Both the position numbers and the translations under genes were made by a program. From Amphiscolops sp. MND2022 (taxonomy: Eukaryota), in assembly GCA_964187785.1 (NCBI GenBank), contig OZ076413.1:36146001-36210000 (forward strand): a stretch of 64,000 nt of DNA, read 5' to 3'. How positions within the stretch are numbered: the first letter of the stretch is position 1; the number at the start of each line of letters is the position of its first letter. The notes under the pieces are model-generated. The model had not been told where the DNA came from. It did no database searches and saw nothing but the letters and a program-made list of their open reading frames with translations. This document shows positions 5,580-30,405 of the stretch, in pieces.

Positions 5580-5860
5580 TCCAGGCCTTTTCAACTCTCG
5601 GCGAAAAAGAACAGAGATTTTTCGCCAAAGAACCACGAACAACAAGTGGCATCATCGGAAAAGATACCAACCAGATCAGCATTTGGATTACCAAAACTAG
5701 CAGTATTCCCCTCCTCCGCCACTTGAGACCGCCTTTCTTTTCTGCTTCAAGGAAAATTTCTTCGACTCTCTTCGATTGCTACTTTCCTCGGCAACTTCTC
5801 TACTCATTTCTTTCTGAAAGTATTGAAGAATATTCGGTGTATCCTTCAAGGCGGGCGGAA

Positions 5861-6105
5861 TGTTGAAGCATCACATACAAAATCATTTGTGAATTCAAAT
5901 TTTCTAATATTCATTCCATTGAGTTTTATATCGCACTAGTTAAAGACTCGTGCTATTCATTGACATTATAATCTTGTTCACGTATTTATTATATTCTTTT
6001 TTTCTTTCTTCTCCACACTGTATAGTTGCTGCCAATCTACAAAACATTAAAAGTCAATTGGCAAAAGTCGTTTTTGCTCTCCCGAAAATCATCATAGTTG
6101 AAACA
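5861..6105 (+). mobile_element. Putative 245-bp LTR of a second Bel/Pao family, preceded by its PPT; copies at 9241-9485, 12572-12816 and 15245-15489
   Basis: TCAAGGCGGGCGGAA-TG nearly matches the PPT/LTR junction TCAAGGTGGGCGGAA-TG of the full provirus (22677-22693). Termini TGTT...AACA. Internal ATTAAA in U1-U3. Confidence 0.6.
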
Positions 6106-6488
6106 AGGTATAAAGATTAGGTATAGATCAATCATTCAATCAAGGTCCCCAAGTAGTGAGTTGATATACAGGAGGGTCCCCAAGTCAGGGGGGTCTCCAA
6201 AAACTTTTTTCGACTGAACGCTTGTTCCGCGGAAAAAATGAGTCACAGACTTATTTCCAAACATTTTTGAAAATCCGGGAATAATCACGAAAGTGCACGC
6301 CCCCTCCCCTGAAGGCAAGAAAAAAACTTCAGAGGTAAAATTTACCGGTTAACATTAAGTCGGGTCTTTCCTACAAGTTAGGGAAATATCATTCTTTTAA
6401 GTAATTCATGATTATTCAAACGCTCTCTCAACCTCCAACGTTGAAACGATGAACGAAGTTTTTTGGTAGCAGCGCGGGGTCAGTTATG

Positions 6489-7134
6489 AAGTGAAACGCG
6501 ACTATTATAGTGATTTTTTTTCTATCCACACGAACTGACCAAAGTAGTTCTTAAAAGTTCTACAAAATATTATGGTGTCAAATTGCACCATTTGGCCTAG
6601 CGAACTGGACCAAAATGGTTTTACCTGTTTTTCCGCGTAACATACCATACCGGGCGAGACCAAAGAGTCCCCCCTTTCAATTTTTCTCGGCACTGACAGA
6701 CATTTTTTTCGGATTTTTTTTCGGAATTTTTTTTTCCTCAAACGGTCCCCCTGCATTTTTTTGATGTTTTGCGACAGAATGGATGTTGGAAAATCCCAAA
6801 GGGTTCCTCCTTTCAGTTTTTTTCGGCATTGTGAGATTTTTTCTCGAAAAAAAATCAATTTTTTCATGTTTTGCGACAGAATGGATGTTGAAAAACCTCA
6901 AAGGGTCCCCCTTTCAGTATTTCGGCATTGTGAGACGTTAGCGCGCCAGGCGCTCGCGCTAGCGGGCCCCGGCGCGCCACTCGGTCCATTTTTTTAGTAT
7001 GTAATTTTTTCAAAAAAAATTTCGAAAAATTTTTCGATTTTCGAGTACTGTAAAAGAATACTTGACACTTGGAAGTCTTTTTGCTATTTTTGAGCCTTGG
7101 ATATGGCGCCGACTTGGGCCGGTCCCGGCTTGTT
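6489..7134 (-). mobile_element. Non-autonomous interspersed repeat, possibly Helentron/DINE-like; also 9869-10511; related sequence near 39050-39910 and 61800-62210
   Basis: Present only in U1 and U2, where it replaces a short AT-rich stretch seen in U3/U4. One end reads AACAAGCCGGGACCGGCCC with a GC hairpin, at a T-rich site. Internal subrepeats GGGGGACCCTTTG. The superfamily call is inference. Confidence 0.55.
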
Positions 7135-10100
7135 AGTCTAACTGGAACAGTGGCGCTCGATGCCAAGTCAAGATTGCAGCAAAACTAGATTTGTTGAAAG
7201 GTTATCAAACAATGCGTAACAGCTGCTCCGATGTTCGCTTTTTTTATTGTGCCAGCAACAGCGAGAGAGTACTACGTTTTCCCTCTTATCGATGCTTTTC
7301 AATCTCAGTATTGTCTGAGACAAAAGATCATTTTTGTTTTGGTTTCACTGTAGTTGAGACTCAGATTCAAAAAGTGATTGCGCTTAACGAATTTAGCAGT
7401 ATTCATCGTTCCCAAGGAAAGGTTTTGCCTGGCGAAAAATTCTAGATTCGAAAGACTGAAATCTTGAGTTTTATCAACAAACTTCCAATTTTATTGATTC
7501 TAATTCTCAAGCTGAGGGCAGGGAAAAGTGATAATTACGAGTGCCATTCAGCTAACGATTTGCGACGAGTGCATGAGCTACAGTGAACATTTTCTTTTTG
7601 TGTAGCACTGCTTTTGCTTCAGTTTCATTATTTTTTGAATAGCATCTTTTTGAAATTTTTCTCGAAATCAAAACTGCGTTGCGATTGGCTGAAAGACGTA
7701 TCATTAAAAAAGCAATCCCTTATAAGAATTTGAAGTAGTATACACTGCTGTTGAGTACCTCATTCAGTTAAGTAGTTAAAATGGAACATCAGATGGTAAA
7801 ATGCTTCAGAAATCTCGAATGAAAAGATTGTTTTCTGAGAAAAAAAACATGTCAATTACAATAATCACACGCAAAATTCTAACAGGAGTAAAAAGTATAA
7901 TGAATGTTTCAGTTGCTTTTTTCATTCTGGATGAATAAATATTTTGAAACGAGAACATATTAACAAGGACAAGTTGCAGTGAATCACCCTCAAGAGGAAA
8001 AGTCAATGATGACTTTTTCTGCTTTATCAACAGGAAGATTCGGATAAAAATGGCCATCTGGGCACAGAGGAACTCAAACAATCACGTCCTCTGTATATAA
8101 GCACATACAATTAATGAAGTAAGACACACCATTCCCAAGCCACCATAATAATGAAAGCTTTGAATACACAGATTTACAGAATAACAGAATAAATAAGATT
8201 AGGCTCTCACACTTTCCTGCAAAGGTGAGAAAACTTTCAAGTACGATAATCACAAAAAAGTATCCAGTATCATCTGAATTATAGCAACAATGTTTTGCTA
8301 CACAAACATCATTTCGGTATCTTTAAACTCCTCTTTGAACAAACCATTCCCGTTTATCAAGCTGCGCGTGAGTAAAACTGCAATTTCGAGGGAAAAAGTT
8401 TCCCAAGTTGTCAGCCTCAAATTCATCGGTGCAGTCTCCTCTTCTGATAAATGCCCGCTTCTCGACCATATCTTGTTTAATGCAATCACGAATGTTGTTT
8501 TCTGCTAGTGCTTAGTAGAGCGAGTCGTTGTTCTTTTCTAATTCTTCGAACTTGTTGTGGTCGCAGTACTTCTGGAAGAAATTGTAGTAAAGCTCCAGCA
8601 TTCTTAGCGTGTTAAAGAATGAAGTAACCAACAAATGTTGGTTCCCGATGTTCTATATGTGCTTTATTAAGCTCGACTTCATAGACAGAATCATAGATGT
8701 AGCGAAGTTGTTTGAAAAAAGCGCTATTGATTGCACGGTCTTTTTTATGCAAGTATTTTGTCACTGTAAGCTTGCTGTGGTCCATTATTTAGTAACCATA
8801 AGATTTTTTACTCAAGAACTTTCATAGTCTCTGCAATCACTGTGGACTTCTTGTTTCGATCACCCAGTTCTCGGGCCTCGACAACTGATTTTACAAATCC
8901 TTCGAACCCTTTCTGTGGAAAGTATTCAACAAATTTTTGAATTTTTGTAGACTCAAGACCTCCAGGCCTTTTCAACTCTCGGCGAAAAAGAACAGAGATT
9001 TTTCGCCAAAGAACCACGAACAACAAGTGGCATCATCGGAAAAGATACCAACCAGATCAGCATTTGGATTACCAAAACTAGCAGTATTCCCCTCCTCCGC
9101 CACTTGAGACCGCCATTCTTTTCTGCTTCAAGGAAAATTTCTTCGACTCTCTTCGATTGCTACTTTCCTCGGCAACTTCTCTACTCATTTCTTTCTGAAA
9201 GTATTGAAGATTATTCGGTGTATCCTTCAAGGCGGGGGAATGTTGAAGCATCACATACAAAATCATTTGTGAATTCAAATTTTCTAATATTCATTCCATT
9301 GAGTTTTATATCGCACTAGTTAAAGACTCGTGCTATTCATTGACATTATAATCTTGTTCACGTATTTATTATATTCTTTTTTTCTTTCTTCTCCACACTG
9401 TATAGTTGCTGCCAATCTACAAAACATTAAAAGTCAATTGGCAAAAGTCGTTTTTGCTCTCCCGAAAATCATCATAGTTGAAACAAGGTATAAAGATTAG
9501 GTATAGATCAATCATTCAATCAAGGTCCCCAAGTAGTGAGTTGATATACAGGAGGGTCCCCAAGTCAGGGGGGTCTCCAAAAACTTTTTTCAACTGAACG
9601 CTTGTTCCGCGGAAAAAATGAGTCACATACTTATTTCCAAACATTTTTGAAAATCCGGGAATAATCACGAAAGTGCACGCCCCCTCCCCTGAAGGCAAGA
9701 AAAAAACTTCAGAGGTAAAATTTACCGGTTAACATTAAGTCGGGTCTTTCCTACAAGTTTGGGAAATATCATTCTTTTATTTTATTCATGATTATTCAAA
9801 CACTCTCTCAACCTTCAACGTTGAAACGATGAACGAAGTTTTTTGGTAGCAGCGCGGGGTCAGTTATGAAGTGAAACGCGACTATTATAGTGATTTTTTT
9901 TCTATCCACACGAACTGACCAAAGTAGTTCTTAAAAGTTCTACAAAATATTATGGTGTCAAATTGCACCATTTGGCCTAGCGAACTGGACCAAAATGGTT
10001 TTACCTGTTTTTCCGCGTAACATACCATACCGGGCGAGACCAAAGAGTCCCCCCTTTCAATTTTTTTCGGCACTGAGACTTTTTCGGATTTTTTTTCGGA

Positions 10101-13100
10101 ATTTTTTTTCCTCAAAGGGTCCCCCCTGCATTTTTTTGATGTTTTGCGACAGAATGGATGTTGGAAAATCCCAAAGGGTTCCTCCTTTCAGTTTTTTTCG
10201 GCATTGTGAGATTTTTTCCCGAAAAAAAAATCAATTTTTTCATGTTTTGCGACAGAATGGATGTTGAAAAACCTCAAAGGGTCCCCCCTTTCAGTATTTC
10301 GGCATTGTGAGACGTTAGCGCGCCAGGGGCTCGCGCTAGCGGGCCCCGGCGCGCCACTCGGTCCATTTTTTTAGTATGTAATTTTTTCAAAAGAAAATTC
10401 GAAAAAATTTTCGATTTTCGAGTACTGTAAAAGAATACTTGACACTTGGAAGTCTTTTTGCTATTTTTGAGCCTTGGATATGGCGCCGACTTGGGCCGGT
10501 CCCGGCTTGTTAGTCTAACTGGAACAGTGGCGCTCGATGCCAAGTCAAGGTTGCAGCAAAACTAGATTTGTTGAAAGGTTATCAAACAATGCGTAACAGC
10601 TGCTCCGATGTTCGCTTTTTTTAATTGTGCCAGCAACAGCGAGAGAGTACTACGTTTTCCCTCTTATCGATGCTTTTCAATCTCAGTATTGTCTGAGACA
10701 AAAGATCATTTTTGTTTTGGTTTCACTGTAGTTGAGACTCAGATTCAAAAAGTGATTGCGCTTAACGAATTTAGCAGTATTCATCGTTCCCAAGGAAAGG
10801 TTTTGCCTGGCGAAAAATTCTAGATTCGAAAGACTGAAATCTTGAGTTTTATCAACAAACTTCCAATTTTATTGATTCTAATTCTCAAGCTGAGGGCAGG
10901 GAAAAGTGATAATTACCAGTGCCATTCAGCTAACGACTTGCGACGAGTGCATGAGCTACAGTGAACATTTCTTTTAGTGTAGCACTGCTTTTGCTTCAGT
11001 TTCATAATTTTTTGAATAGCATCTTTTTGAAATTTTTCTCGAAATCAAAACTGCGTTGCGATTGGCTGAAAGACGTATCATTAAAAATGCAATCCCTTAT
11101 AAGAATTTGAAGTAGTATACACTGCTGTTGAGTACCTCATTCAGTTAAGTAGTTAAAATGGAACATCAGATGTTAAAATGCTTCAGAAATCTCGAATGAA
11201 AAGATTTTCTGAGAAAAAACATGTCAATTACAATAATCACACGCAAAATTCTAACAGGAGTAAAAAGTATAATGAATGTTTCAGTTGCTTTTTTCATTCT
11301 GGATGAATAAATCTTTTGAAACGAGAACATATTAACAAGGACAAGTTGCAGTGAATCACCCTCAAGAGGAAAAGTCAATGATGACTTTTTCTGCTTTATC
11401 AACAGGGAGATTCGGATAAAAATGGCCATCTGGGCACAGAGGAACTCGAACAATCACGTCCTCTGTATATAAGCACATACAATTAATGATGTAAGACACA
11501 CCACTCCCAAACCACCATAATAATGAAAGCTTTGAATACACAGATTTACAGAATAAATAACATTAGGCTCTCACACTATCCTGCAAAGGTGAGAAAACTT
11601 TCAAGTACGATAATCTCAAAAAAGTATCCAGTATCATCTGAATTATAGCAACAAAACCATTTGAACAAACCATTCCCGTTTATCAAGCTGCGCGTGAGTA
11701 AAACTGCAATTTCGAGGAAAAAGTTTCCCAAGCTGTCAGCCTCAAATTCATCGGTGCAGTCTCCTCTTCTGATAAATGCCCGCTTCTCGACCATATCTTG
11801 TTTAATGCAATCACGAATGTTGTTTTCTGCTAATGCTAAGTAGAGCGAGTCGGTGTCCATTTCTACTTCTCCGAACTTGTTGTGGTCGCAGTACTTTTGG
11901 AAGAAATTGTAGTAAAGCTCCAGCATTCTTAGCTTAGCGTGTTAAAGAATGAAGTAACCAACAAATGTTGGTTCCCGATGTTCTATATGTGCTTTATTAA
12001 GCTCGACTTCATAGACAGAATCATAGATGTAGCGAAGTTGTTTGAAAAAAGCGCTATTGATTGCACGGTCTTTTTTATGCAAGTATTTTGTCACTGTAAG
12101 CTTGCTGTGGTCCATTATTTAGTAACCATAAGATTTTTTACTCAAGAACTTTCATAGTCTCTGCAATCACTGTGGACTTCTTGTTTCGATCACCCAGTTC
12201 TCGGGCCTCGGCAACTGATTTTACAAATCCTTCGAACCCTTTCTGTGGAAAGTATTCAACAAATTTTTGAATTTTTGTAGACTCAAGACCTCCAGGCCTT
12301 TTCAACTCTCGGCGAAAAAGAACAGAGATTTTTCGCCAAAGAACCACGAACAACAAGTGGCATCATCGGAAAAGATACCAACCAGATCAGCATTTGGATT
12401 ACCAAAACTAGCAGTATTCCCCTCCTCCGCCACTTGAGACCGCCTTTCTTTTCTGCTTCAAGGAAAATTTCTTCGACTCTCTTCGATTGCTACTTTCCTC
12501 GGCAACTTCTCTACTCATTTCTTTCTGAAAGTATTGAAGAATATTCGGTGTATCCTTCAAGGCGGGCGGAATGTTGAAGCATCACATACAAAATCATTTG
12601 TGAATTCAAATTTTCTAATATTCATTCCATTGAGTTTTATATCGCACTAGTTAAAGACTCGTGCTATTCATTGACATTATAATCTTGTTCACGTATTTAT
12701 TATATTCTTTTTTTCTTTCTTCTCCACACTGTATAGTTGCTGCCAATCTACAAAACATTAAAAGTCAATTGGCAAAAGTCGTTTTTGCTCTCCCGAAAAT
12801 CATCATAGTTGAAACAAGGTATAAAGATTAGGTATAGATCAATCATTCAACCAAGGTCCCCAAGTAGTGAGTTGATATACAGGAGGGTCTCCAAAAACTT
12901 TTCAACCGAACGCTTGTTCCGCGGAAAAAATGAGTCACAGACTTATTTCCAAACATTTTTGAAAATCCGGGAAAAATCACGAAAGTGCACGCCCCCTCCC
13001 CTGATCTGCACGTGCAAAATTTATGGATTTTTTGGGGGGCCCTCAGAGTGTGCTGGGAAGATTTAAGGATTCGTAACATACAGTGAGTCATTGAAGGCAA

Positions 13101-15509
13101 GAAAAAAACTTCAGAGGTAATTTTTACCGGTTACCTTAACTCGGGTCTTTCCTACAAATTTGGGAAATATCATTCTTTTAAGTAATTCATGATTATTCAA
13201 ACACTCTCTCAACCTTCAACGTTGAAAAGGTGAACGAAGTTTTTTGGTAGCAGCGCGGGGTCAGTTATGGGAATAGAATAATGTTCTATTTTTAGTCTAA
13301 CTGGAACAGTGGCGCTCGATGCCAAGTCAAGATTGCAGCAAAACTAGATTTGTTGAAAGGTTATCAAACAATGCGTAACAGCTGCTCCGATGTTCGCTTT
13401 TTTTATTGTGCCAGCAACAGCGAGAGAGTACTACGCTTTCCCTCTTATCGATGCTTTTCAATCTCAGTTTTGTCTGAGACAAAAGATCATTTTTGTTTTG
13501 GTTTCACTGTAGTTGAGACTCAGATTCAAAAAGTGATTGCGCTTAACGAATTTAGCAGTATTCATCGTTCCCAAGGAAAGGTTTTGCCTGGCGAAAAAAT
13601 TCTAGATTCGAAAGACTGAAATCTTGAGTTTTATCAACAAACTTCCAATTTTATTGATTCTAATTCTCAAGCTGAGGGCAGGGAAAAGTGATAATTACCA
13701 GTGCCATTCAGCTAACGATTTGCGACGAGTGCATGAGCTACAGTGAACATTTTCTTTTAGTGTAGCACTGCTTTTGCTTCAGTTTCATAATTTTTTGAAT
13801 AGCATCTTTTTGAAATTTTTCTCGAAATCAAAACTGCGTTGCGATTGGCTGAAAGACGTATCATTAAAAATGCAATCCCTTATAAGAATTTGAAGTAGTA
13901 TACACTGCTGTTGAGTACCTCATTCAGTTAAGTAGTTAAAATGGAACATCAGATGTTAAAATGCTTCAGAAATTTCGAATGAAAAGATTGTTTCCTGAGA
14001 AAAAAACATGTCAATTACAATAATCACACGCAAAATTCTAACAGGAGTAAAAAGTATAATGAATGTTTCAGTTGCTTTTTTCATTCTGGATGAATAAATA
14101 TTTTGAAACGAGAACATATTAACAAGGACAAGTTGCAGTGAATCACCCTCAAGAGGAAAAGTCAATGATGACTTTTTCTGCTTTATCAACAGGAAGATTC
14201 GGATAAAAACACTTTCCTGCAAAGGTGAGAAAACTTTCAAGTACGATAATCACAAAAAAGTATCCAGTATCATCTGAATTATAGCAACAATGTTTTGCTA
14301 CACAAACATCATTTCGGTATCTTTAAACTCTTCTTTGAACAAACCATTCCCGTTTATCAAGCTGCGCGTGAGTAAAACTGCAATTTCGAGGGAAAAAGTT
14401 TCCCAAGCTGTGAGCCTCAAATTCATCGTTGCAGTCTCCTCTTCTGATAAATGCCCGCTTCTCGACCATATCTTGTTTAATGCAATCACGAATGTTGTTT
14501 TCTGCTAGTGCTAAGTAGAGCGAGTCGGTGTCCATTTCTAATTCTTCGAACTTGTTGTGGTCGCAGTACTTCTGGAAGAAATTGTAGTAAAGCTCCAGCA
14601 TTCTTAGCTTAGCGTATTAAAGAATGAAGTAACCAACAAATGTTGGTTCCTGATGTTCTATATGTGCTTTATTAAGCTCGACTTCATAGACAGAATCATA
14701 GATGTAGCGAAGTTGTTTGAAAAAAGCGCTATTGATTGCACGGTTTTTTTTATGCAAGTATTTTGTCACTGTAAGCTTGCTGTGGTCCATTATTTAGTAA
14801 CCATAAGATTTGTTACTCAAGAACTTTCATAGTCTCTGCAATCACTGTGGACTTCTTGTTTCGATCACCCAGTTCTCGGGCCTCGACAACTGATTTTACA
14901 AATCCTTTGAACCCTTTGTGGAAAGTATTCAACAACTTTTTGAAATTTTGTACACTCAAGACCTCCAGGCCTTTTCAACTCTCGGCGAAAAAGAACAGAG
15001 ATTTTTCGCCAAAGAACCACGAACAACAAGTGGCATCTTCGGAAAAGATACCAACCAGTTCAGCATTTGGGTTACCAAAACTAGCAGTATTCCCCTCCTC
15101 CGCCACTTGAGACCGCCATTCTTTTCTGCTTCAAGGAAAATTTCTTCGACTCTCTTCGATTGCTACTTTCCTTGGCAACTTCTCTACTCATTTCTTTCTG
15201 AAAGTATTGAAGAATATTCGGTGTATCCTTCAAGGCGGGCGGAATGTTGAAGCATCACATACAAAAGCATTTGTGAATTCAAATTTTCTAATATTCATTC
15301 CATTGAGTTTTATATCGCGCTAATTGAAGACACGTGCTATTCATTGACATTATAATCTTATTCACGTATTTATTATATTCACTTTTTCTTTTTTCTCCAC
15401 ACTGTATAGTTGCTGCCAATCTACAAAACAATAGAAGTCAATTGACAAAAATCACTTTTGCTCTCCCGAAAATCATCATAGTTGAAACAAGGTATAAAGA
15501 TTAGGTATA

Positions 15510-15871
15510 GTGCAGATCAGGGGAGGGGGCGTGCACTTTCGTGATTTTTCCCGGATTTTCAAAATTGTTTGGAAAAGTCTGTGACTCATTTTTTCCGCAG
15601 AACAAGCGTTCGGTTGAAAAAAGTTTTTGGAGACCCCCCTGACTTGGGGATCCTCCTGTATATCAACTCACTACTTGGGGACCTATCATTCAATCAAGGT
15701 CCCCAATTAGTGAGTTGATATACAGGAGGATCCCCAAGTCAGGGGGGTCTCCAAAAACTTTTTTCAACCGAACGCTTGTTCTGCGGAAAAAATGAGTCAC
15801 AGACTTTTCCAAACATTTTTGAAAATCCGGGAAAAATCACGAAAGTGCACGCCCCCTCCCCTGATCTGCAC
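15510..15871. repeat. Near-perfect inverted repeat (175-bp arms, 12-bp spacer), only in unit U4
   Basis: 15510-15684 (GTGCAGATCAGGGGAGGGGGC...GGGGACCT) is the reverse complement of 15697-15871. Other units have only the right arm. Confidence 0.95.
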
Positions 15872-16008
15872 GTGCAAACTTTATGGATTTTTTTGGGGGG
15901 CCGTCAGAGTGTACTGGGAAGATTTAAGGATTCTTAACATACAGTGAGTCATTGAAGGCAAGAAAAAAACTTCAGAGGTAAATTTTACCGGTTAACATTA
16001 ACTCGGGT

Positions 16009-17348
16009 TGAACTTACCGAAAGACAAGAAGAACTTTAACAGAAGAAGAGGGTAACCACAAGACAAAAAAAGGCACTAGTACGAGGTACTAGCACCCTGA
16101 GTCGCTTCTGCTTGCAGCTCCTCTTCAACCAGCCTTTCTAATTCAATACTCTTCTTGATCTCTGATAACGGCTCATCATCAGAGTCAACCACTCGCCACA
16201 AAGGCTTTAAGTCTGGACGTGCCTCCAGAAGCAGTCTTCGATATTGCAAGGACGTATCCCGCCTCCAAGCCTCCTCACAAACCTTCTTCCCAAACGGCCG
16301 ATATTGTCGATTCATTTCCCTGGCTTGAGGTTTGCGCCGGGCCGTCAAACGTTTACGGCGAGGATGAGCATGCCAACCATGTGGGCCTTTGTTCCGACGA
16401 CCGAAAAACTTGTTACCACGCGCCCAACCCAACTTTCTCGGCGGAATCCTCAACTTAGCATACTCTCTACCATCTTCCTCTTCCTCTTGAGTCACCCAAT
16501 CCCCAAACCAATGGTCTTCCCACTTTTCCTGCTCCCTATAGTCTGCATCAACTAGTATTCTTCTGGGAAAGGTAGTATCAGACATGTCTTACATAAAATC
16601 ATCCGAAATTTAGTGACCATATTGCAACGCAGATAGAGGATCGAAAAGAACAGGAAAGAACGCAACAACAACAGACCGAAAGTACAAAGTGCACTGTTCT
16701 ATTGATTTTGGTATACAGTGACTTCTGAGAAAAAGAACCCCCTCGACGTCCCCCATAGTCTATGGAACTGGGATCCACTATTGAAGCCTAAATCTCATCG
16801 CACGCAACTGCAATTATAAAAACTATAACAGTGCGCTTAAATTAGTTGTAAACTATCCAGCTAATAAGCATTTTCCTCCATATCATGTGTTCCGCCATTT
16901 TATTTTGGTCACAAAAAGCCCTATTTTTCACCTATTCGCTTATCTCTGCTGATTCTCTCAATTGCGTGACTTGATACTTCTTCCGTATGTTTTATATGTT
17001 TTTGCTGCTATAATATACTGATTTTTATGTGTATTCATTGATTTTAATCTTTGGTATTGAAAAGTAACTATACAAAATTTCGTTGTACAATGCATACGTG
17101 TACACGTTCATGTTTATGAATGAAAAGGTAATTCCCGCCTTGTAGCATGTTTGATATTGTTGATTTTCCTTCACTAATTTATTTAACCTCAGTATTGTGT
17201 TTATATCTTTGAAATTCAGTCATTCTCTTGTTCAACTAACTACTTTTGAAACCACCTCACAAAGAACTAAGACCTAAATTCCTAAACGTTGTCAACCCAA
17301 TCCAAGTGTTGAAACGAAGTTTTGATTTTCGAGCTTCACGAAGAATCA
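16009..17348 (+). repeat. 5' LTR (1340 bp)
   Basis: Direct repeat of 22692-24033 with about 14 differences counted by eye. Candidate TATAAAA at 16815-16821. Confidence 0.97.
16076..16585 (-). CDS. 169-aa antisense ORF inside the 5' LTR, function unknown (Arg/Lys-rich core, acidic ends)
   Basis: ATG-initiated open frame with purine-rich, coding-like composition, unlike the AT-rich remainder of the LTR. The 3' LTR copy has TAT>TAA at codon 16. Confidence 0.6.
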   Translation of the reverse strand: MSDTTFPRRILVDADYREQEKWEDHWFGDWVTQEEEEDGREYAKLRIPPRKLGWARGNKFFGRRNKGPHGWHAHPRRKRLTARRKPQAREMNRQYRPFGKKVCEEAWRRDTSLQYRRLLLEARPDLKPLWRVVDSDDEPLSEIKKSIELERLVEEELQAEATQGASTSY

Positions 17349-17351
17349 TTT

Positions 17352-17370
17352 TGGTGCCGCGACCCGGGAT
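17352..17370 (+). promoter_or_regulatory. Primer-binding site, tRNA-His-like
   Basis: TGGTGCCGCGACCCGGGAT 3 nt after the LTR end. Resembles the complement of the tRNA-His 3' end (TGGTGCCGTGACTCGGAT). Confidence 0.75.
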
Positions 17371-17387
17371 CAGACAACGTGATAGAA

Positions 17388-20300
17388 TGGACGGTCACGA
17401 AGAACGAAATGCTTCGCAATCAGAAGCAGTGAGCAACCTGACGACAGACAAGCTCCGACGGCTCAAAAGGTCCCGAGGTGGACATAAAAGTTTTGTTAGT
17501 AAGACAAGAGAAACACTCGAATCCCTTTTCGACAGAGAATTAACTCTTTCAATCCCTGATTTGGAAAAACTGAAGAAAAATGTACATGCACTTCGACAAT
17601 CCCAAGACAAAATAAGAGAGAAAGATAACCAAATTGAAGACGAAGTACCCGAAGACTATTTAGAATCTGAAATTGAAGAAACAAGTGAATTTCATTCAGA
17701 GCTTTCGTCTTTCATTCAAAAATGCCAAAATTTACTTGAAAAACAAGAAAATGCCTCAGATAGAAATGGAGCAGAAACAACTACAATACAAGCAAGGAAT
17801 TCTGGAAGAAATGCTGGCTCTATAAAACTGCCAAAAATTGAGCTACCTAGTTTCTCCGGAAAATATACTGAATGGACCAGTTTCTACGATCTTTTTAACG
17901 CTACTGTACATTCAAATAGCTCACTCAAACCGGCAGAAAAACTGAACTACTTGAAATCAGCACTGAAAGGCGAAGCATTCACACTGGTCAAAAATCTGAC
18001 GATCACTGATGCTAACTACGAGAATGCCAGGGACATCCTAGAGCAGCGGTACTCAAATAAGCGTTTCATTGTAAGAATCCACCTCGATGAAATCCTCAAC
18101 CAAGGTTCAATCAAGTCTGAAAATGGAATTAGTCTCAGGAAACTACTGGAAGCATTCCAGGAGAATATAGCTGCTCTAGAAGCCCAACGATGCAATTGTA
18201 GTGACTGGGGTTCAATTCTCTTGCATGTTCTTGCTGGTAAGCTTGACGTTGAAACTCGAAAACAATGAGAATTACAACAGTCAGAAACTGAGTTACAGGA
18301 ACTAACCGATTTACTTAGGTTCATTGACACGAGAGCGCGTGCACTAGAAACTATTGAGAAAAATCCAACAAAAAGTCAAGAAAAACCAAAATTTTGTGAC
18401 CAAATTTCTCCTACTGGACCCGTTTCTGACAGGAAATTTCAATCCTATGCCACCCAATTGGACAACAAGAAGTGCACTGTTCCATCGACGGATCAGTCAG
18501 TTTCCAGGACTGACGAGTTCAAGGCAATGACACCATCGCAAAGGAAAAAGTTCGTTCAGTCAAAGAATCTTTGCTTCAATTGCTTAAAAACAGGACATAT
18601 TGTCGCCAATTGCCCCAGTAAGTTTTCCTGTCGTCAATGTAACAAAAAACATGACTCTTTGTTGCATATTGACGTTGCCAATCAACAAAGACGCTCCGAA
18701 AAGGCAAATGTTTCAACTACGGACAACGCCGACACACAAACTACTTTAACAAGTACTTCTGGCAAAGCCAGTTCCAAGTCAGATCATGGAGAAACTGTCG
18801 CTCTTCTTGGCACCTGTCGACTAGCTGTAGAAGGCAAGGATGGACGAATTTTTTGGGCCCGAGCCCTCCTTGATAGTGGATCGGAAACTAATTTCGTAAC
18901 TGAACGACTTGCACAACAATTGCAGCTGACAAGACGAGGAACGAAGACAGCGATCTACAACCTGGGATCATCAGCACCCAAACCCACAAATGGAATCGTC
19001 ACTGTAACCCTCAGACCACAAAATCAACCTCTTGTGATATCGGAAATGCATGTGATTCCGAAAATAACGAACACTCTTCCCAGTCAGCCAGTAGATGTGA
19101 AGACCATGGACATCATCAAAGATCTCCATCTAGCCGATAAGTTTCTCACATCCAGGATCAATTGACATGTTGCTTGGAGTGGAATTGATGAACGAAATCA
19201 CAACAAACGATCGTTTTCAAGAGAAATCTCTAACCTTCACTCGTACAGTCTTCGGTTGGGTCATAACAGGTAGAGCGAAAGTTGACAAATTTAGAGACCA
19301 AAATTCTCATCTTGAAGTTGTTTGCAACTTTCTGCAAACAAACAGTGCACAAGATATCAGCAAGTTCTGGTGCACTGAAGAAGTGCCATCAACCAAACCA
19401 TCCCTCACCGAAGCAGAGATGGTCACAAAAAACCACTATGACGCAACAACTAAGCTGGTGAACGGACGATTTCAAGTCAAATTGCCCTTCAAACCGAATG
19501 CAACCCCACTTGGAGAAAGCAAGGCTAGTGCGTTGAGACGGTTTCTCATGCTTGAGAAACGATTGGAAGCAAACCCCAACCTTCATCAGCAATATCGAGA
19601 TTTCATTCACGAGTTCATCGATCTAGAACATCTGGAGGAGGTCCCAAAGTATGAACTCGACTTGCCCCCGCACAAATGCTTCTATTTGCCACATCATTGT
19701 GTACAGAAAGAAAGTACAACAACCAAGCTTCGAGTTGTTTTTGATGCCAGCGCGAAAACTTCCGCAAAAGTCTCCCTCAATGATGTTCTACTGGTGGGAC
19801 CAAAGATACAAGATGACCTGTTTGACCACCTCATCAGATTTCGATGCTATGCTATTGGAATCACTGGTGATTTTGCGAAGATGTATAGACAAATCGCCTT
19901 AGACAAAGAAGACAAGGATTTTCATCGACTGTTCTGGAGAGACACGCCTATTGATCCTATCAAGGTCTACCGGATGACACGGGTGACTTATGGCATCGGC
20001 TCATCAGGATATCACTCCATACGTTCACTCCAAGAAGCCGGAAAGGAATCGCCAGTGGAGGAAGTCATCAAACGAGACTTCTACGTAGATGATATGCTCT
20101 CTGGTGCTCACACCAAGGACGAAGCTACTCAACTCATCCAAGCAGTAACGAAGCAATTAGAGAAGTACGGAATGATTTTGCGGAAATTCGCCAGCAATAA
20201 TGCGCAAATCATTGAGGATCTCCAACCAAATCTTCGCGAGAATGAGAAAAATTTCACTGAAAATGACTACAGTGTCAAAACTCTTGGAATAAAGTGGCTG

Positions 20301-22662
20301 CCAAATGAAGATATCTTTGCGTTCACAATTAAGGAATCGGACAAGCTGAAGTTCACCAAACGATCGATGTTGTCGGATATCTCAACAATCTTCGATCCAC
20401 TCGGTCTACTGACACCTGTCACATTGAAGTTAAAATTGATAATTCAGTCCTGCTGGGTTCGTGGAGTTGATTGGGATGAAGAATTGCCATCAGATATTCA
20501 ATCGGAGTTCACAAAATGGCGAACAACTTTCCCTGTAATCGCAAAACTGAAGATTCCGAGGCACATCCTGAAGAGGCGTTTCGAATTGCACCTGTTCTGC
20601 GATGCTTCAGAGTTAGCATATGCTGCGTGCATCTACTTTCGTTGCCTTGACACACAAGAAATCAATCTTTTAGTTTCCAAGTCAAAAGTTGCTCCTCTGA
20701 AGCCTCTAACTGTTCCAAAATTGGAACTTTGTGCAGCATTTCTCGGATGCAACTTGTTGAAAGCTGTCCTACCAATCTTGGAGAAGATTAAATTCATACC
20801 GGAGCAAATTCATGGATGGACGGATTCTACTTTAGTCCTGAGTTGGTTCCAAGAGTTCCCTCGAAGCTGGAACACCTTCATTGCCAACCGTGTGCAAGCA
20901 ATTCAGGACATTTTGAAGCTGAAACATTGGAAACACGTCCCAAGTGAAGATAACCCAGCTGATCTGGCAACTCGAGGAGTATCAGCAGATCAATTAGACT
21001 CAGCAGCACTCTGGTGGAACGGTCCAAGATGGCTAGGATGTCTGAGCATTCCTAAACAACCGCAAACTAGCAAAACGGACACCGAGAGGAAGAAAAGCCA
21101 CATTTTGTTTTTTGAGACCATTTTCAGACACGCAGGATCATGATCGCTTCAATCTAAACGAACAGTGCACTCTGTCCAAAGCTATTCAAGTGCACTGTTA
21201 TGTTCGTTTCTTCATCGACAAGCTGAGAATGAAAAATTCTGGTCTCAAAAAATTGCTATTTTTGAAGAAGAATGGTCCAAGGTCACTCAAATTCCGGCAA
21301 AAGGTCCTTGAAGACATTGTTCGATGGGAGTAAGGACTCCATTTCGAAGAAGAGGTTGCTTGCCTACAAAATGAACGTCCACTACCCCGGAAAAGTACAT
21401 TGTTGCAGCTTCATCCTTTTATTGAGGATGGGATCCTCATGGTGGGCGGAAGAATTAGAAATAGTTGGACATCTGCCGAAACGAAGCGCTTCCCCATCCT
21501 GATTCCAAAAGAAAGCCCACTTTCAAGATTGATCATCGTAGATGTGCACCTGAAGATGCTACACGCTGGAGCAAACGCTACCCTGGCAGAAATTCGACGG
21601 AATTTTTGGATCATTCAAGCCAAAACTCTCATTCGAAAACACATCCACAGCTGCATCAAATGTTTTCGCTACAATTCCAGGATGCAAGCATCTCTCATGG
21701 GTGAACTACCAGAAGAAAGGATTACACCATCGCCACCATTCACGCACACGGGCGTCGACTTCACTGGTGCCTTCACTGTCAAAGACTTCCAAACAAAGGA
21801 AACATTCAAATGCTACATGGCACTATTCGTCTGTTTCTCAACAAAGGCCATTCATCTGGAACTTGTATCGTCACTCAGTACACCTGCTTGTACAGCTGCT
21901 CTGCGTCGTTTTGTTGCTCGTAGAGGTGCACCGGTTCGAATGTATTCCGATAATGGAACTAACTTTGTGGGAACCGCAAACGAGTTGAAGCTTCTTGAAG
22001 TTTTGTCTCAGGACCACACAAAGGAATCTTTACCAAATCTTGCAATTGATTTGGGTTCTCAATGGTTCATGATTCCGCCAGGATCACCGCACTGGGGAGG
22101 CCTCTGGGAATCAGGAATCAAGTCGGCCAAGCGTCATCTCAAGAAGACAATGGGAAACAATGTCCTGAACTATGAAGAACTTGCCACACTAATCTGCGAT
22201 ATCGAATCAATCCTCAACTCTAAGCCACTCATCGAAGCATCTGATGATCCAACGGATGACATGGTGCTCATGCCATCCATGCTTGTCAATGGCAAGGAAA
22301 TTCGATACCTTTCAGTTGCAGAGAAAACTAGTCCTTTCCAAATTCGTGAAGATGTCAACCCGCAAAAAAGATGGAGTTTTTTGAAACGATTGATATCTCT
22401 TTTCTGGAAGCGCTGGAGCTCGGAGTATCTAACCACACTTCACATAAGACGAAAGTGGAATCGCGATGGAACATCAAACCTTGAAGAAGGAGACATTGTT
22501 TTTGTAACAGACGAGACTACACCGCCACTTCAATGGCCTCTGGGACGAATTGTTGAGGCTTATCGTGGACAAGACAATATTTGTCGAGTTGTTAAAGTGA
22601 AAACGGCACGTGGAGAGTATGTAAAACCTGTGATCAAGTTGAGAAAACTTCCTTTAAGTTGA
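17388..22662 (+). pseudogene. Bel/Pao gag-pol polyprotein, disrupted by 2 stops (18266-18268, 21331-21333) and 2 frameshifts (~19145, ~21110)
   Basis: Gag LPKIELPSFSG and KLNYLKSAL; zinc knuckles CFNCLKTGH..C and CRQCNKKH; protease ALLDSGSE; RT YLPHH, KLRVVFDAS, YVDD (20082-20093); RNaseH LHLFCDAS; integrase HAG..CIKC, GVDFTG, YSDNGTNF, GLWESGIK; DUF5641-like tail. Confidence 0.97.
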
Positions 22663-22678
22663 GCAACTGGGATTGCTC

Positions 22679-22691
22679 AAGGTGGGCGGAA
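22679..22691 (+). promoter_or_regulatory. Polypurine tract
   Basis: AAGGTGGGCGGAA immediately before the TG of the 3' LTR. Confidence 0.8.
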
Positions 22692-24033
22692 TGAACTTAC
22701 CGAAAGACAAGAAGAACTTTAACAGAAGAAGAGGGTGACCACAAGACAAAAGAAGGCACTAGTACGAGGTTTTAGCACCCTGAGCCGCTTCTGCTTGCAG
22801 CTCCTCTTCAACCAGCCTTTCTAATTCAATACTCTTCTTGATCTCTGATAACGGCTCATCATCAGAGTCAACCACTCTCCACAAAGGCTTTAAGTCTGGA
22901 CGTGCCTCCAGAAGCAGTCTTCGATATTGCAAGGACGCATCCCGCCTCCAAGCCTCCTCACAAACCTTCTTCCCAAACGGCCGATATTGTCGATTCATTT
23001 CCCTGGCTTCAGGTTTGCGCCGGGCCGTCAAACGTTTACGGCGAGGATGAGCATGCCAACCATGTGGGCCTTTGTTCCGACGACCGAAAAACTTGTTACC
23101 ACGCGCCCAACCCAACTTTCTCGGCGGAATCCTCAACTTAGCATACTCTCTACCATCTTCCTCTTCCTCTTGAGTCACCCAATCCCCAAACCAATGGTCT
23201 TCCCACTTTTCCTGCTCCCTTTAGTCTGCATCAACTAGTATTCTTCTGGGAAAGGTAGTATCAGACATGTCTTACATAAAATCATCCGAAATTTAGTGAC
23301 CATATTGCAACGCAGATAGAGGATCGAAAAGAACAGGAAAGAACGCAACAACAACAGACCGAAAGTACAAAGTGCACTGTTCTATTGATTTTGGTATACA
23401 GTGACTTCTGAGAAAAAGAACCCCCTCGACGTCCCCCATAGTCTATGGAACTGGGATCCACTATTGAAGCCTAAATCTCATCGCACGCAACTGCAATTAT
23501 AAAAACTATAACAGTGCACTTAAATTAGTTGTAAACTATCCAGCTAATAAGCATTTTCCTCCATATCATGTGTTCCGCCATTTTATTTTGGTCACAAAAA
23601 AGCCCTATTTTTCACCTATTCGCTTATCTCTGCTGATTCTCTCAATTGCGTGACTTGATACATCTTCCGTATGTTTTATATGTTTTTGCTGCTATAATAT
23701 ACTGATTTTTATGTGTATTCATTGATTTTAATCTTTGGTATTGAAAAGTAACTATACAAAATTTCGTTGTACAATGCATACGTGTACACGTTCATGTTTT
23801 ATGAATGAAAAGGTAATTCTCGCCTTGTAGCATGTTTGATATTGTTGATTTTCCTTCACTAATTTATTTAACCTCAGTATTGTGTTTATATCTTTGAAAT
23901 TCAGTCATTCTCTTGTTCAACTAACTACTTTTGAAACCACCTCACAAAGAACTAAGACCTAAATTCCTAAACGTTGTCAACCCAATCCAAGTGTTGAAAC
24001 GAAGTTTTGATTTTCGAGCTTCACGAAGAATCA
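22692..24033 (+). repeat. 3' LTR (1342 bp)
   Basis: Copy of 16009-17348. The antisense ORF here (22759-23268) has a premature stop. Confidence 0.97.
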
Positions 24034-25344
24034 CGGGTCTTTCCTACAAATTTGGGAAATATCATTCTTTTAAGTAATTCATGATTATTCAAACACTCTC
24101 TCAACCTTCAACGTTGAAACGATGAACCGAAGTTTTTTGGTAGCAGCGCGGGGTCAGTTATGGGAATATTGCATGGGAATAGAATAATGTTGTTCTATTT
24201 TTAGTCTAACTGGAACAGTGGCGCTCGATGCCAAGTCAAGATTGCAGCAAAACGAGATTTGTTGAAAGGTTATCAAACAATGCGTAACAGCTGCTCCGAT
24301 GTTCGCTTTTTTTTATTTTGCCAGCAACAACGAGAGAGTACTACGTTTTCCCTCTCATCGATGCTTTTCAATCTGAGTATTGTCTGAGACAAAAGATCAT
24401 TTTTGTTTTGGTTTCACTGTAGTTGAGACTCAGATTCAAAAAGTGATTGCGCTTAACGAAGTTAGCAGTATTCATCGTTCCCAAGGAAAGGTTTTGCCTG
24501 GCGAAAAAATTCTAGATTCGAAAGACTGAAATCTTGAGTTTTGTCAACAAACTTCCAATTTTATTGATTCTAATTCTCAAGCTGAGGGCAGGGAAAAGTG
24601 ATAATTACAGGTGCCATTCAGCTAACGATTTGCGACGAGTGCATGAGCTACAGTGAACATTTTCTTTTAGTGTAGCACTGCTTTTGTTTCAGTTTCCAAA
24701 TTTTTTGAATAGCACCTTTTTGAAATTTTTCTCGAAATCAAAACTGCGTTGCGAATGGCTGAAAGACGTATCATTAAAAAAGCAATCCCTTATAAGAATT
24801 TGAAGTAGTATACACTGCTGTTGAGTACCTCATTCAGTTAAGTAGTTAAAATGGAACATCAGATGGTAAAATGCTTCAGAAATCTCGAATGAAAAGATTG
24901 TTTTCTGAGAAAAAAAACATGTCAATTACAATAATCACACGCAAAATTCTAACAGGAGTAAAAAGTATAATGAATGTTTCAGTTGCTTTTTTCATTCTGG
25001 ATGAATAAATATTTTGAAACGAGAACATATTAACAAGGACAAGTTGCAGTGAATCACCCTCAAGAGGAAAAGTCAATGATGACTTTTTCTGCTTTATCAA
25101 CAGCAAGATTCGGATAAAAATGGCCATCTGGGCAGAGGAACTCAAACAATCACGTCCTCTGTATATAAGCACATACAATTAATGAAGTAAGACACACCAT
25201 TCCCAAACCACCATAATAATGAAAGCTTTGAATACACAGATTTACAGAATAACAGAATAAATAAGATTAGGCTCTCACACTTTCCTGCAAAGGTGAGAAA
25301 ACTTTCAAGTACGATTATCACAAAAAAGTATCCAGTATCATCTG

Positions 25345-27260
25345 AATTATAGCAACAATATGTTTTGCTACACAAACATTTCGGTATCTTTAACCTCTTC
25401 TTTGAACAAACCATTCCCGTTTATCAAGCTGCGCGTGAGTAAAACTGCAATTTCGAGGGAAAAAGTTTCCCAAGCTGTGAGCCTCAAATTCATCGGTGCA
25501 GTCTCCTCTTCTGATAAATGCCCGCTTCTCGACCATATCTTGTTTAATGCAATCACGAATGTTGTTTTCTGCTAGTGCTAAATAGAGCGAGTCGGTGTCC
25601 ATTTCTAATTCTTCGAACTTGTTGTGGTCGCAGTACTTCTGGAAGAAATTGTAGTAAAGCTCCAGCATTCTTAGCTTAGCGTATTAAAGAATGAAGTGCC
25701 AAATGTTGGTTCCCGATGTTCTATATGTGCTTTATTAAGCTCGACTTCATAGACAGAATCATTGATGTAGCGAATATGTTTGAAAAAAGCCCTATTGATT
25801 GCACGGTCTTTTTTATGCAAGTATTTTGTCACTGTAAGCTTGCTGCGGTCCATTTTTTAGTAATCATGAGATTTGTTACTCAAGAACTTTCATAGTCTCT
25901 GCAATCACTGTGGACTTCTTGTTTCGATCACCCAGTTCTCGGGCCTCGACAATTGATTTTACAAATCCTTTGAACCACTTCTGTGGAAAGTATTCAAATT
26001 TTTGAATTTTTGTACACTCAAGACCCAGGTTCAGATAGAAGTTGAAAAGCGGTGTAATTAAGCTTCCGTTTTCCAAGTGAAAGCTGGAAATCAACATTTT
26101 GCTAGGATGTTGTAGCGAGCCATGATTCTCAGCATACATGTTCATGTACTCACTGATATCATCTCTACTGACGAAACATTTCTTGAAAATTGGGGGTAAC
26201 TGTTTGCAGTCATTTTGAAGACGCTTGGGTACTGATAAATCCCATTGAACATACCCAAAGATATATTATTTTTGATCTGTTACATGATTTGCTGTTCCGA
26301 TAATGGTTTGCGAAATGGGAAGTTTGTCCTCGATCTCTCTCTGATGTCCTTGTCTTCTTTAACTTGCTTCCACCAGCAGCATTCCCAAATTTCGATCACT
26401 TTGAATCCTTTCCCAATGATAGCTATATTTTTTGCTCCGAGTCATAGTTTTTACGCTTTTCCCAACATTTTCGAATTTCAGAAGTTACTCTCTTTCTGCT
26501 GACAACCACAACCATGATGAAAACGACAAATAGCTTCGAACACAGTGTCACAATATCCACAGATTTCGCCGACGCTGAAGTTTTTGATTCTGTATTGTTT
26601 TCCGGCAGTGTAGATACTTTCAATTGTACATTCAGGTCTTGTGTTCTGGAAATGATCCATCACGATATTCTAAAATCGTTGTCGTCGATTTTGAACGGGG
26701 TTTAAATTTTTTCAATTCAGCATCCATAACCCATCTAGTGTACAAACCAGTGGGCATTTCCTGACACATGGAAAACAGATAGAGCTGACTGGCGTCTACT
26801 ATTATGGTTCTAAACAAATTATCTGTAAACCGAATTTTAGTTTCACCTACAACTGCTTCACGTGTAAAAAGAATGGAAGGACCTCCCACCGTATCAGACT
26901 TGATTTTCTCCAAAAGATCTCTATCGTTTTTAGTGAAAAGGTAAAACTTTGCGGTTGTTGAACAATGTAGATGAATGTTTGCTAATTTTGGCAGAGTGTA
27001 CCCAAGTTTCAGCATGTCTATTTCGCGCTCATGATAAAACGCAAGGCTTAAAATGTCGGAACAACATCCTGGTTGTTGTACCGCTCGACGTTCTCTTCGA
27101 ATGTACTCATATTTTCTGTACTCCAGATCTTTTTCAAATAACTATAGTTTTCTGTTCCTGTTGGAGGAGCAGTGAAAATTTTCGTTTCTTTCAAGGCATC
27201 TTGTTTGGTGTAGCCACTGCATTACGATACATATGCCGCAAAAGTGGAATTTATCATCAA
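25345..27260 (-). pseudogene. Polinton/Maverick-type family-B DNA polymerase, C-terminal ~640 codons, degenerate
   Basis: YNNQDVVPT, DMLKLGYTLPKLAN, VGGPSILF, DASQLY..SMCQEMPTG (motif A), a Cys/His-containing insert (TVFEA..FHHGCGCQ), MLISSFHLENG, ETMKVLE, EMDTDSLYLAL, LCSKTYCCY. Confidence 0.92.
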
Positions 27261-27516: not shown

Positions 27517-29154
27517 TTACTGTATTTTGATCACTACGCGTAACGCCAAATCACAGTGTAACGAGCAAAACGTGGGTTTGTTTTTATTCAAGGTTTTTAG
27601 ATGTCTCTTGCATTCATATAGACTAATAGGATGAAACGTGAAAGGTGCGCTAGTTTTCGAATCGTGTGAGTTTTCAGTGTAGGGTTTCTGTTTTCCTAAA
27701 TAGTCGCCTAGTTTTGAAAACCTATAATTGAGTAAATTAGCTATTTTTGTTTGGTCAGTTACGAGATCGCCGAATGAGTTCCGTAAACTGTTTATTTCGG
27801 TCTTTGTCTTCTTACAATTACGGGCTTCATTTATAAAATTCCATTTGTCTTTGTCACTTTCAAGATTGTTAAAAACTTTGAGCTGGTCCTGAAATCGATT
27901 TTCTTCAAAATTGTCAAGAAATTGATTATGTACTTTTTGGTAGTTCACGTCATTGGGATCCATATTTAGTCTCATTTTATCATAGAGTTACATAGTTTCA
28001 GCAGTTATCCATTTTTTGTGGAGCCATAGTTCATTTTTATCGTTACGAATGAAAACTTTTCTTTTTTGTACGCATTTTCTTAAAGCATTTTCAAAAATGT
28101 CAGTGAACGCTGAAATCATTCCTTCAGCGCAATTTTGATTATAGAAGTTACTCCAATCCGAATCTGAGAGATGGTTTCTCAAAACTTCAGGACGGTAATT
28201 CCGTTTATCGAAGATTTCTTTTATTGTTACTCGTGCTTGAGGTTTCATTTTTATGTTTGTAATTGCCGATGTAGCACGATGGTCCACTTCCGTTTTTTTC
28301 AAGGTTCTTAGTGGGGTGTCAGATACGTATGTGACTGCACCTTCTATCATTGGCAGATCTGAAATTATGTAGTCTACGAGTGATTTTGAAGTAGGTCCTA
28401 TTCGCGTTGGTTCTGTTGTGTTAAGAATATGAAAGCCGTAAGGAATTGTTATTGTTTCTAGGCATTGACGTTCTTTATGGTTAAAAAAATTAATGTTGAA
28501 GTCGTCCATGACAGTGATTGGTTTATTTTCAACGATAGCTATATCGATGCTAGTTGATAATTCTTCCAGAAAAGGATCTATCAAAGATTTCGAAGGATTG
28601 TAGCTAATATTGATGAGCTGTCTGTTTTTATTTGTAGGATCAATATTGAAATTACATTCAACCCAAAGACTTTCAAACTGGTTTTTATTCATGCAATTTA
28701 GGTCATTTCGTGACTTTGAGTTCAATGTTTTTGGTATTATAAGCATAACTCCGCCTCCTTTTGTTTTGTTACCGAGTTTTCTATCGGACCTAAATGTTTT
28801 GAAGCGGTCTTTGTTCAATTCCCAAAGTTTTTGATCATTAGATTCTTTCAACCAAGTTTCGGATAATCCGTATACTGTGTTGTCTCCTAGGCCATTCAAG
28901 ATGATCTGTATTTGTTCTTTTTTCTGTACGATACTTTGGCAATTGGCATGGAAAAATTTGGTATTCTTCGGTGCTTTTAGGAATTCTTGCGAAAGTTTTT
29001 TGAAGTTTACGGTCGGTCCAGGGTTCATTTCGATATCTCCCGAACCTAATAAGCGTTTGATTATGATTGAGTAAAGACCAGTCACTTTCACGGGCCACTT
29101 GAACAAACGTTTTTTCACAGTAAAATTTAGAAAGAGTGTGGAAAGTTGGAGCAT
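27517..29154 (-). pseudogene. LINE ORF2: apurinic-like endonuclease plus linker, RT missing
   Basis: HANCQSI, GLSETWL, RSDR..KGGGVMLI, ESLWVE, DDFNIN, PTRI, SLVDYI; then WNFINE and KIANLLNYRFSKLG after a 1-nt frameshift near 27988. Confidence 0.9.
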
Positions 29155-29348
29155 CTAAGTAGTTATATAAAACATCAGTTTCATGGCTGGCTGGAACATT
29201 AATAGCACTAGAAAAAAACTTAATCGAAACACAGAAAAGTATTAGAACTGAAATGAGAAATTTCCGCCATACAATTCGCATTTCGATTTTTATTGAAATT
29301 ATAGATCAGAGAAGATGATCTGAGCCATTTTGTTACCCTATTGAATCC

Positions 29349-30350: not shown

Positions 30351-30405
30351 GAAATTTTAGCTACGGTAATAATATTGCATAATCTGTTTTAAGGTCAACT
30401 GTATT

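Follow-up and report, generated by a model that had tools for sequence, protein, structure and literature searches.

An antisense gene inside the LTRs of a Bel/Pao retrotransposon and a repeated two-part DNA module as its candidate target

An antisense gene within the LTR and its conservation

The long terminal repeats of a Bel/Pao retrotransposon contain an antisense open reading frame of 169 codons (aORF; 16076..16585, minus strand, ATG at 16585, stop at 16076-16078) that, by the way its copies have diverged, is shown to be a true protein gene under purifying selection, carried as an accessory ORF. Along its length the same element repeats a two-part DNA module, and the combination suggests that the element makes its own regulator and keeps itself switched on. 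As far as literature searches reach, an LTR-internal antisense gene is new for Bel/Pao; these searches, with partial coverage of subscription papers and of Repbase, found no account of an LTR-internal antisense gene or of a JmjC gene in this group. In the accessible portions of three related studies, a metazoan survey does not use the word "antisense" (PMC3118150), rotifer elements are given extra enzyme ORFs with no mention of JmjC (PMC5408684), and Retrosat2 has an ORF0 in the sense orientation (PMC3485330).

The host element of aORF (16009-24033) lies inside a window of 64,000 nt, G000:C5:36146001-36210000, the whole stretch of DNA that was analyzed, from a genome of 1.07 Gb. Its 5' LTR (16009..17348, plus strand) is 1340 bp long with TG...CA ends and its 3' LTR (22692..24033, plus strand) is 1342 bp long; the two are 98.96% identical, and 7 of the 12 base differences between them fall in the aORF frame. 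A 5-bp target-site duplication (16004-16008 and 24034-24038) flanks both LTRs, a PBS-like sequence, a conserved tract starting with TGG, directly follows the 5' LTR (17352..17369, plus strand), and a polypurine tract is found at 22679..22691 (plus strand). The gag-pol region (17387..22662, plus strand) is broken into five open stretches and has the domain order DUF1759, zinc knuckle, protease, RT (RVT_1), Peptidase_A17, integrase (rve) and DUF5641. With gag followed by the PR-RT-RH-IN order and Pao-type domains, and with paired LTRs, a PPT and a target-site duplication, the element is by its sequence features a member of the Belpaoviridae. It resembles that family in gag-pol order, LTRs and PPT (PMC8742986), and its PBS-like tract is a putative counterpart of the PBS that in Belpaoviridae is complementary to tRNA-Arg or tRNA-Gly. 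The ICTV profile gives gag, pol and env, an LTR length of 0.2-1.2 kb that the present 1.34 kb slightly exceeds, and no accessory or LTR-encoded gene (PMC8742986).

The surroundings of the element are repetitive. It is embedded among tandem units of ~3.3 kb that are 96-98% alike (window 4001-16008 and 24034-26025), and a near-perfect palindrome with 175-nt arms is found at 15510-15871. A second, decayed Bel/Pao element with RT, Peptidase_A17 and integrase lies at 989-3700 (plus strand), its LTR not being seen within the window, and LINE-like pieces at 27517-30350 (minus strand) include a frame (27988-29154) with GDIEMNPGP near its start, a sequence resembling 2A peptides known from certain non-LTR elements. 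The region 30405-33153, a 22-bp minisatellite beside ~318-bp inverted repeats (30649-30966 and 32838-33153), is possibly a DNA transposon. A CoA-transferase family III frame (E 1e-27) at 38092-38787 (plus strand) ends in SKL and probably represents the final exon of a racemase-like peroxisomal gene. An intron-free frame of 282 aa at 52445-53293 (plus strand), with a match to OST-HTH/LOTUS (PF12872, E 7e-13, two stretches), adjoins a tandem duplication and is a candidate host piRNA-type gene or retrocopy.

The frame lies wholly within the LTR, at LTR nt 68-577, and hence is carried in both LTRs; the copy of the 3' LTR (22759..23268, minus strand) is stopped at codon 16. The initial annotation had described a 169-aa ATG-initiated antisense ORF with a basic core (HPRRKRLTARRKP) and acidic ends, open in the 5' LTR and stopped at codon 16 in the 3' LTR, and all of these features are present. 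It had also proposed that the stop arose after insertion, and in a comparison of 16 copies the codon-16 stop is indeed private to the 3' LTR of the window element, marking it as a later lesion. A candidate TATA box (TATAAA, 16815..16820, plus strand, LTR nt 807) does lie 230 nt from the aORF ATG, as annotated, but in the LTR alignment it is not retained as such in the other subfamilies, so the TATA assignment is weak. The placement of aORF in U3 is putative. The 67 nt beyond the aORF stop (16009-16075) are 69% invariant, more conserved than the aORF frame itself; they have no antisense AATAAA, and a splice-donor-like GTAAGT stands at the extreme end.

A protein search of the genome with aORF yielded 149 matches, many of them fragments, and 16 gap-free full-length copies, chosen from 30 loci, were compared. 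These form three subfamilies that are about 69-79% alike. The ATG is kept in 16/16 copies and a stop at the same codon in 15/16; nine of the 16 have no internal stop, with each other frame containing 2-21 stops in every copy, and the internal stops that do occur are scattered (codons 11, 16, 17, 30, 33, 59, 71 and, twice, 130). Between subfamilies, the dN/dS of aORF is 0.05-0.16 where dS is unsaturated, with an excess of third-position changes (e.g. 31/20/84), and for differences fixed between subfamilies it is 0.107, 0.063 and 0.044 (Fisher p 1e-13 to 3e-19). The RT and integrase of the same elements gave 0.09-0.38 in 12 diverged pairs, so that aORF is as low as pol. The initial annotation had named ORF retention and dN/dS as a check, and stops or frameshifts across the family as a refutation; the frame is retained with a fixed-difference dN/dS of 0.04-0.11, and such family-wide disruption was not seen. 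Changes private to single copies have a pN/pS of 0.5-0.66, plus stops, as expected for decay post insertion mixed with some selected history.

From the best matches we took 42 distinct LTR copies and scored them for an open aORF, which 13 have: 7 of 15 5' LTRs, 5 of 15 3' LTRs, 1 of 7 unclear copies and 0 of 5 solo LTRs. The initial annotation's idea that solo LTRs would also spread the gene is weakened by this, the five examined giving it no support. The dS of aORF is higher than that of pol, and one element (L070, G000:C12:51050300-51059000) is a mosaic in which gag is near-identical to the window element, RT is intermediate, and the LTR with its aORF comes from another subfamily, the aORF being saturated relative to the window element. 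Both observations indicate that LTR modules are exchanged between subfamilies.

The predicted protein (20.4 kDa) is hydrophilic (GRAVY -1.29). Residues 1-45 are acidic-aromatic (14 D/E, 7 aromatics), residues 46-111 are strongly basic (22 K/R) and residues 112-169 are acidic. The most invariant part is residues 67-105 (27/39 positions), and two GW dipeptides are conserved (53-54 and 70-71). An AlphaFold model has long helices at 77-122, 124-134 and 142-165, with low confidence (pLDDT 51.6). No Pfam family matched at E 0.1, bZIP and PF04195 included; a word-indexed protein search returned 30 near copies and nothing else, and a profile search of 1.84 billion representatives returned 21 matches, 20 of them family copies or fragments. 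The remaining match, a 3510-aa protein, is unrelated and was judged spurious. No homologue was found in IMG/VR or among longer proteins, the latter being weak evidence by the tool's own note, and Foldseek with the model gave 0 matches in PDB and none below E 1.6 in BFVD. Sequence matches in PDB to annexin and ribosomal proteins were rejected as weak (E 0.004 or worse), and the ESM Atlas leads DUF8263, DUF4616, DUF6532 and DUF6698 had low recognition (952) and were unconfirmed. By these searches the protein is an orphan, with an acidic-aromatic head, a basic core and a predicted helical tail. The initial annotation had allowed for a captured fragment of the host or of another TE; by the Pfam, word-indexed, profile and longer-protein searches, aORF is not recognisable as one.

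A two-part module repeated along the element

Alignment of eight LTRs identified a module made up of motif A, AACAGTGCAC, and then motif B, TGGTCWCWAAA, with starts 79 bp apart. Each element has nine modules, on both strands, five of them within gag-pol. Module 1 (16609..16698, minus strand, A at 16698) faces the aORF start, its B beginning 34 nt upstream of the ATG, and module 2 (16827..16916, plus strand) is its mirror, with an A-to-A offset of 129, and faces the sense transcript. Within module 2 a conserved CCGCCATTTT (16892-16901) is, we assume, YY1-like. Modules 8 (23292..23381, minus strand) and 9 (23510..23599, plus strand) are the copies of modules 1 and 2 in the 3' LTR. Module 3 (18392..18481, minus strand) lies within gag and has no partner. 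The remaining four form two arrays: modules 4 (plus, A at 19341) and 5 (minus, A at 19379) between protease and RT (19290..19430, axis 19360), and modules 6 (plus, A at 21161) and 7 (minus, A at 21199) between RNase H and integrase (21110..21250, axis 21180).

The spacing of the two parts is nearly constant, with a pitch of 79 in 95/110 A-B pairs from 14 elements in a search over 70-92 nt; the other 15 pairs are mostly LTR copies with small indels. Altered LTR spacing is common to both LTRs in L062, L065, L069, L070 and L074, which therefore inserted with it. In the window element, all eight A sites with at most one mismatch have a B at 79, and 2000 shuffles produced 0 module matches. An exact search of the 1.07-Gb genome finds the pattern 78 times and its reversed control 0 times. 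In 77 cases an aORF match is no more than 7 kb away and the remaining case is in an LTR fragment, so that all 78 belong to the aORF family. No match was found in 80 loci of other families, and the motifs are identical across subfamilies. Degenerate third positions were changed in 15/242 cases (6.2%) in motif letters, as opposed to 532/1997 (26.6%) nearby, about 4-fold less, and counted by site the figures are 9/30 and 146/250 (p=0.0035). By this comparison of degenerate positions, the module letters are shown to be kept by selection even within coding DNA.

Both internal arrays have an identical two-fold symmetry, in different protein linkers, the centres lying -/+14.5 bp from the axis for A and +/-65 bp for B. 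A and B are thus 79.5 bp apart, one superhelical turn, and the array fits in a nucleosome. Applied to the LTR, the same register implies two dyads 167 bp apart, which would fall at 16679 and 16846; the LTR A-to-A offset is 129 in 13/14 elements with a spacer that is merely 26% invariant, in a set where the 14 elements are related and the 129 offset is represented by two spacer types. The module geometry would fit one nucleosome gyre, the register having been read after the fact; the spacers revealed no 10-bp WW periodicity. The use of both strands by the modules points to double-stranded DNA as the substrate.

Antisense genes in the LTRs of other Bel/Pao families

We sampled 20 other Bel/Pao elements of the genome for genes in their LTRs. 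Twelve whose paired LTRs are short (247-571 bp) lack an antisense gene there, and four (L078, L082, L084 and L096) have an antisense JmjC-type frame. A JmjC frame is also present in both LTRs of L174 (G000:C8:53257500-53267400, LTR of 1612 bp) and of L175 (G000:C11:43644500-43654400, LTR of 1879 bp). The ORF of L096 matches PF02373 at E 3e-5 (24.8 bits, cutoff 24), and L082 and L078 have no Pfam JmjC match, with L082 aligning to L096 at E 1e-15. The HxD of the JmjC fold is found in 14/15 further copies, and the second His of the HxD...H triad is seen in the alignment. From these features the LTR genes of the other families are predicted to be of the JmjC dioxygenase type. They gave 144 and 149 genome matches, partly overlapping, with further LTR JmjC families at 24-49% identity, and pN/pS is near 0.2 between the L082 subfamilies. 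Antisense JmjC genes inside or at long LTRs (1.6-2.2 kb) were observed in L174, L175, L078, L084, L096 and L157-L173, with many intact young copies.

A quick RT tree of 31/56 rows (25 were dropped for short single matches) places the aORF family in one clade (100), inside a set of 14 rows that also includes L094 and six JmjC rows; the JmjC rows need three changes. L094, a young high-copy sister family, has a basic antisense frame of its own (125 aa, 7513-7890, minus strand) that starts in the LTR and runs into the 3' UTR, and its third-position excess over 10 copies (118/80/224) marks it as selected. We set aside a 94-aa sense, signal-peptide-like frame in L094 as the probable shadow of its antisense frame. 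At nt 3160-3900, the L094 element has an in-frame RT insertion with TGGTCA every 158-168 bp and TTGCCC ~80 bp away. Profile comparison detected no relation of aORF to the LTR JmjC proteins or to the L094 frame, which was rejected as a relative at 0.2%.

An unbiased gapped-word search for comparable modules covered eight JmjC-family and five short-LTR elements and found none in 6/8 and 4/5, respectively (0-8 words, shuffle level). L162 (72 words, short pitches), L158 (16) and L094 (18) were above shuffles, in a search whose sensitivity on one decayed copy is limited, the aORF-family member L062 scoring just 11 words.

Tentatively, the LTR of this animal's Bel/Pao elements may serve as a slot in which antisense genes for chromatin counter-defence are exchanged, JmjC enzymes in some families and the basic orphan in another. 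The aORF family would, in addition, have a nucleosome-shaped two-part address along its entire genome, which the aORF protein would read across two gyres.

A proposed regulator, its alternatives and its relation to known systems

We give about even credence to the proposal that the aORF protein is the family's own trans-acting nuclear or chromatin regulator, acting via the modules in the manner of VANC anti-silencing. Modules 1 and 2 would form a divergent promoter pair, driving aORF leftwards and genomic RNA rightwards. The basic helical core (about residues 67-141) would recognise the module in its nucleosomal form, in which sites separated by 79-80 bp would come side by side on two gyres, and the acidic-aromatic head may recruit activators or remodellers. 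Elements of the family would in this way be specifically activated, or relieved from silencing, over their full length, and the protein would feed back positively on its own gene. Indirect backing for a regulator or anti-silencing factor comes from the family-specific repeated module and from the JmjC genes in the same slot elsewhere. The pairing of protein and module is a candidate one, drawn from their co-occurrence within one family, and Pfam, profile, PDB and Foldseek searches gave no homologue, domain or fold in support of DNA binding; the modules could instead be read by Gag, by integrase or by a factor of the host.

A rather unlikely alternative is that aORF acts at the RNA level, as a silencing suppressor or in Rev-like export or packaging, with the modules independently read by the host or serving as internal promoters. 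Arg-rich cores such as that of aORF are typical of RNA binders, and the conserved GW dipeptides, which we take to resemble Argonaute hooks, would also suit this role. Modules 4 and 6 stand just ahead of RT and integrase, and 79 bp would approximate a core-promoter footprint; however, in 1.07 Gb the composite module is confined to the family, unlike a general host promoter element, and the internal plus and minus modules interleave instead of diverging, both of which speak against this alternative. It is distinctly unlikely that the same protein-module pair keeps copy number low as an HBZ-like brake, by locking nucleosomes or damping sense transcription. Such a brake would agree with the antisense orientation of the gene, which negative regulators of retroviruses share (PMC10186651, in the text available), and with gyre-spanning binding, which stabilised nucleosomes in the accessible part of 10.1101/240598 and could mean repression. 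It would also suit the location of sites inside the gene body, suppressing cryptic starts there. The head of the protein, however, has what we regard as an activation-region-like pattern, the same slot elsewhere holds demethylase-like enzymes, and a strongly selected self-repressor would be harder to explain in a selfish element.

We consider it highly improbable that the symmetric arrays are RNA hairpins or signals for recombination or integration, with the protein acting in reverse transcription or integration. Compared with plain shuffles the arrays do fold well, at z -3.8 and -4.9, and with the motifs fixed the protease-RT array retains z -1.1 to -3.9 in 8/8 copies, but the RNase H-integrase array then has no extra pairing in 7/8 copies, at z +0.9 to -1.0, the eighth being at -2.1. 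Folding lends a hairpin reading modest backing in one array and weak backing in the other. Beyond the array motifs, mirror matches are close to chance (20-38/109), module 3 has no partner, and what is invariant is the same-strand pitch of 79, not the hairpin arm (41 inside, 69 in the LTR). Extremely improbable, in our judgment, is an aORF that is no real accessory gene at all but a fragment captured from the host, a JmjC gene that has decayed or the shadow of a gene on the sense strand. An antiparallel sense frame sharing third positions also has a low dN/dS, about 0.2, but it has 2-6 stops in every copy. The GWH triplet common to aORF and the JmjC proteins is set against an hhalign profile-profile match of 0.8% and a helical model as opposed to the JmjC beta-helix, on which grounds we rejected aORF as a JmjC relative; capture is opposed by the lack of an outside homologue in the 1.84 billion representatives or, as weak evidence, among longer proteins.

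Returning to a family-specific regulator, the closest parallel is VANC, which binds repeated family motifs in the anti-silencing of VANDAL in Arabidopsis, according to the accessible text of PMC5735166. Common to both are an element-encoded accessory protein and a short repeated family motif, the link between them being shown for VANC and putative for aORF; a family-specific motif repeated along the element, the mark of a VANC-like working mode, is found here. VANDAL differs in being a DNA transposon with 8-9 bp motifs in non-coding tandem repeats (PMC5735166, same portion), whereas the aORF family consists of LTR retrotransposons with a two-part, non-tandem motif at a fixed 79-bp pitch, within coding linkers. 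There is no similarity of aORF to VANC, and word-indexed and profile searches found no homologue outside its own family; by analogy, aORF would work most like VANC without being a member.

The order of acidic, basic and helical segments in aORF is, we presume, that of HBZ, and the HBZ and ASP frames lie mainly in the internal region. HTLV-1 HBZ and HIV-1 ASP are LTR-driven antisense genes (PMC10186651 and PMC11963269, as far as their available text goes), which aORF, if expressed in the same way, would resemble. In contrast to these, aORF is wholly in the LTR, is duplicated and has no bZIP or other Pfam match; with no bZIP, and in a Bel/Pao element as opposed to a deltaretrovirus, it falls outside the HBZ/APH-2 group. 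MMTV sag is likewise a protein gene mostly within U3 and under purifying selection, and is preserved in solo LTRs, but sag is a sense-strand gene for a membrane superantigen (PMC4667437, in the part accessible), whereas aORF is antisense, soluble-type and unrelated. The antisense ORFs of Retand and Grande, such as TRP28, are also accessory and proposed to be DNA-binding regulators; these elements differ in being Ty3/gypsy, with the ORF between pol and the 3' LTR in one copy per element, and the available text reports no repeated module (PMC11963269). Unlike Retand TRP28, aORF does not match PF04195, and its gene is inside the LTR. T-box factors provide the likeness for the geometry, binding across gyres at half-sites ~80 bp apart that meet on the nucleosome; this was a host factor with homotypic sites in vitro (10.1101/240598, in the portion available), whereas here the halves are unlike and natural, in a mobile element, and nucleosome binding is a prediction.

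Little is known of how LTR retrotransposons in animals evade chromatin silencing, and sequence-specific anti-silencing has been shown for plant DNA transposons. In the present case one element supplies both a 169-aa protein and a 90-bp candidate target. A gene in U3 would be copied with its promoter in each cycle and be swappable between families, which fits the different cargo in related families. A natural gyre-spanning site, if true, would extend the T-box binding mode seen in vitro, and the exchangeable slot with its two-part address, if true, would amount to a pioneer or anti-silencing factor that is sequence-specific, is encoded by a retrotransposon and has a natural target spanning two gyres.
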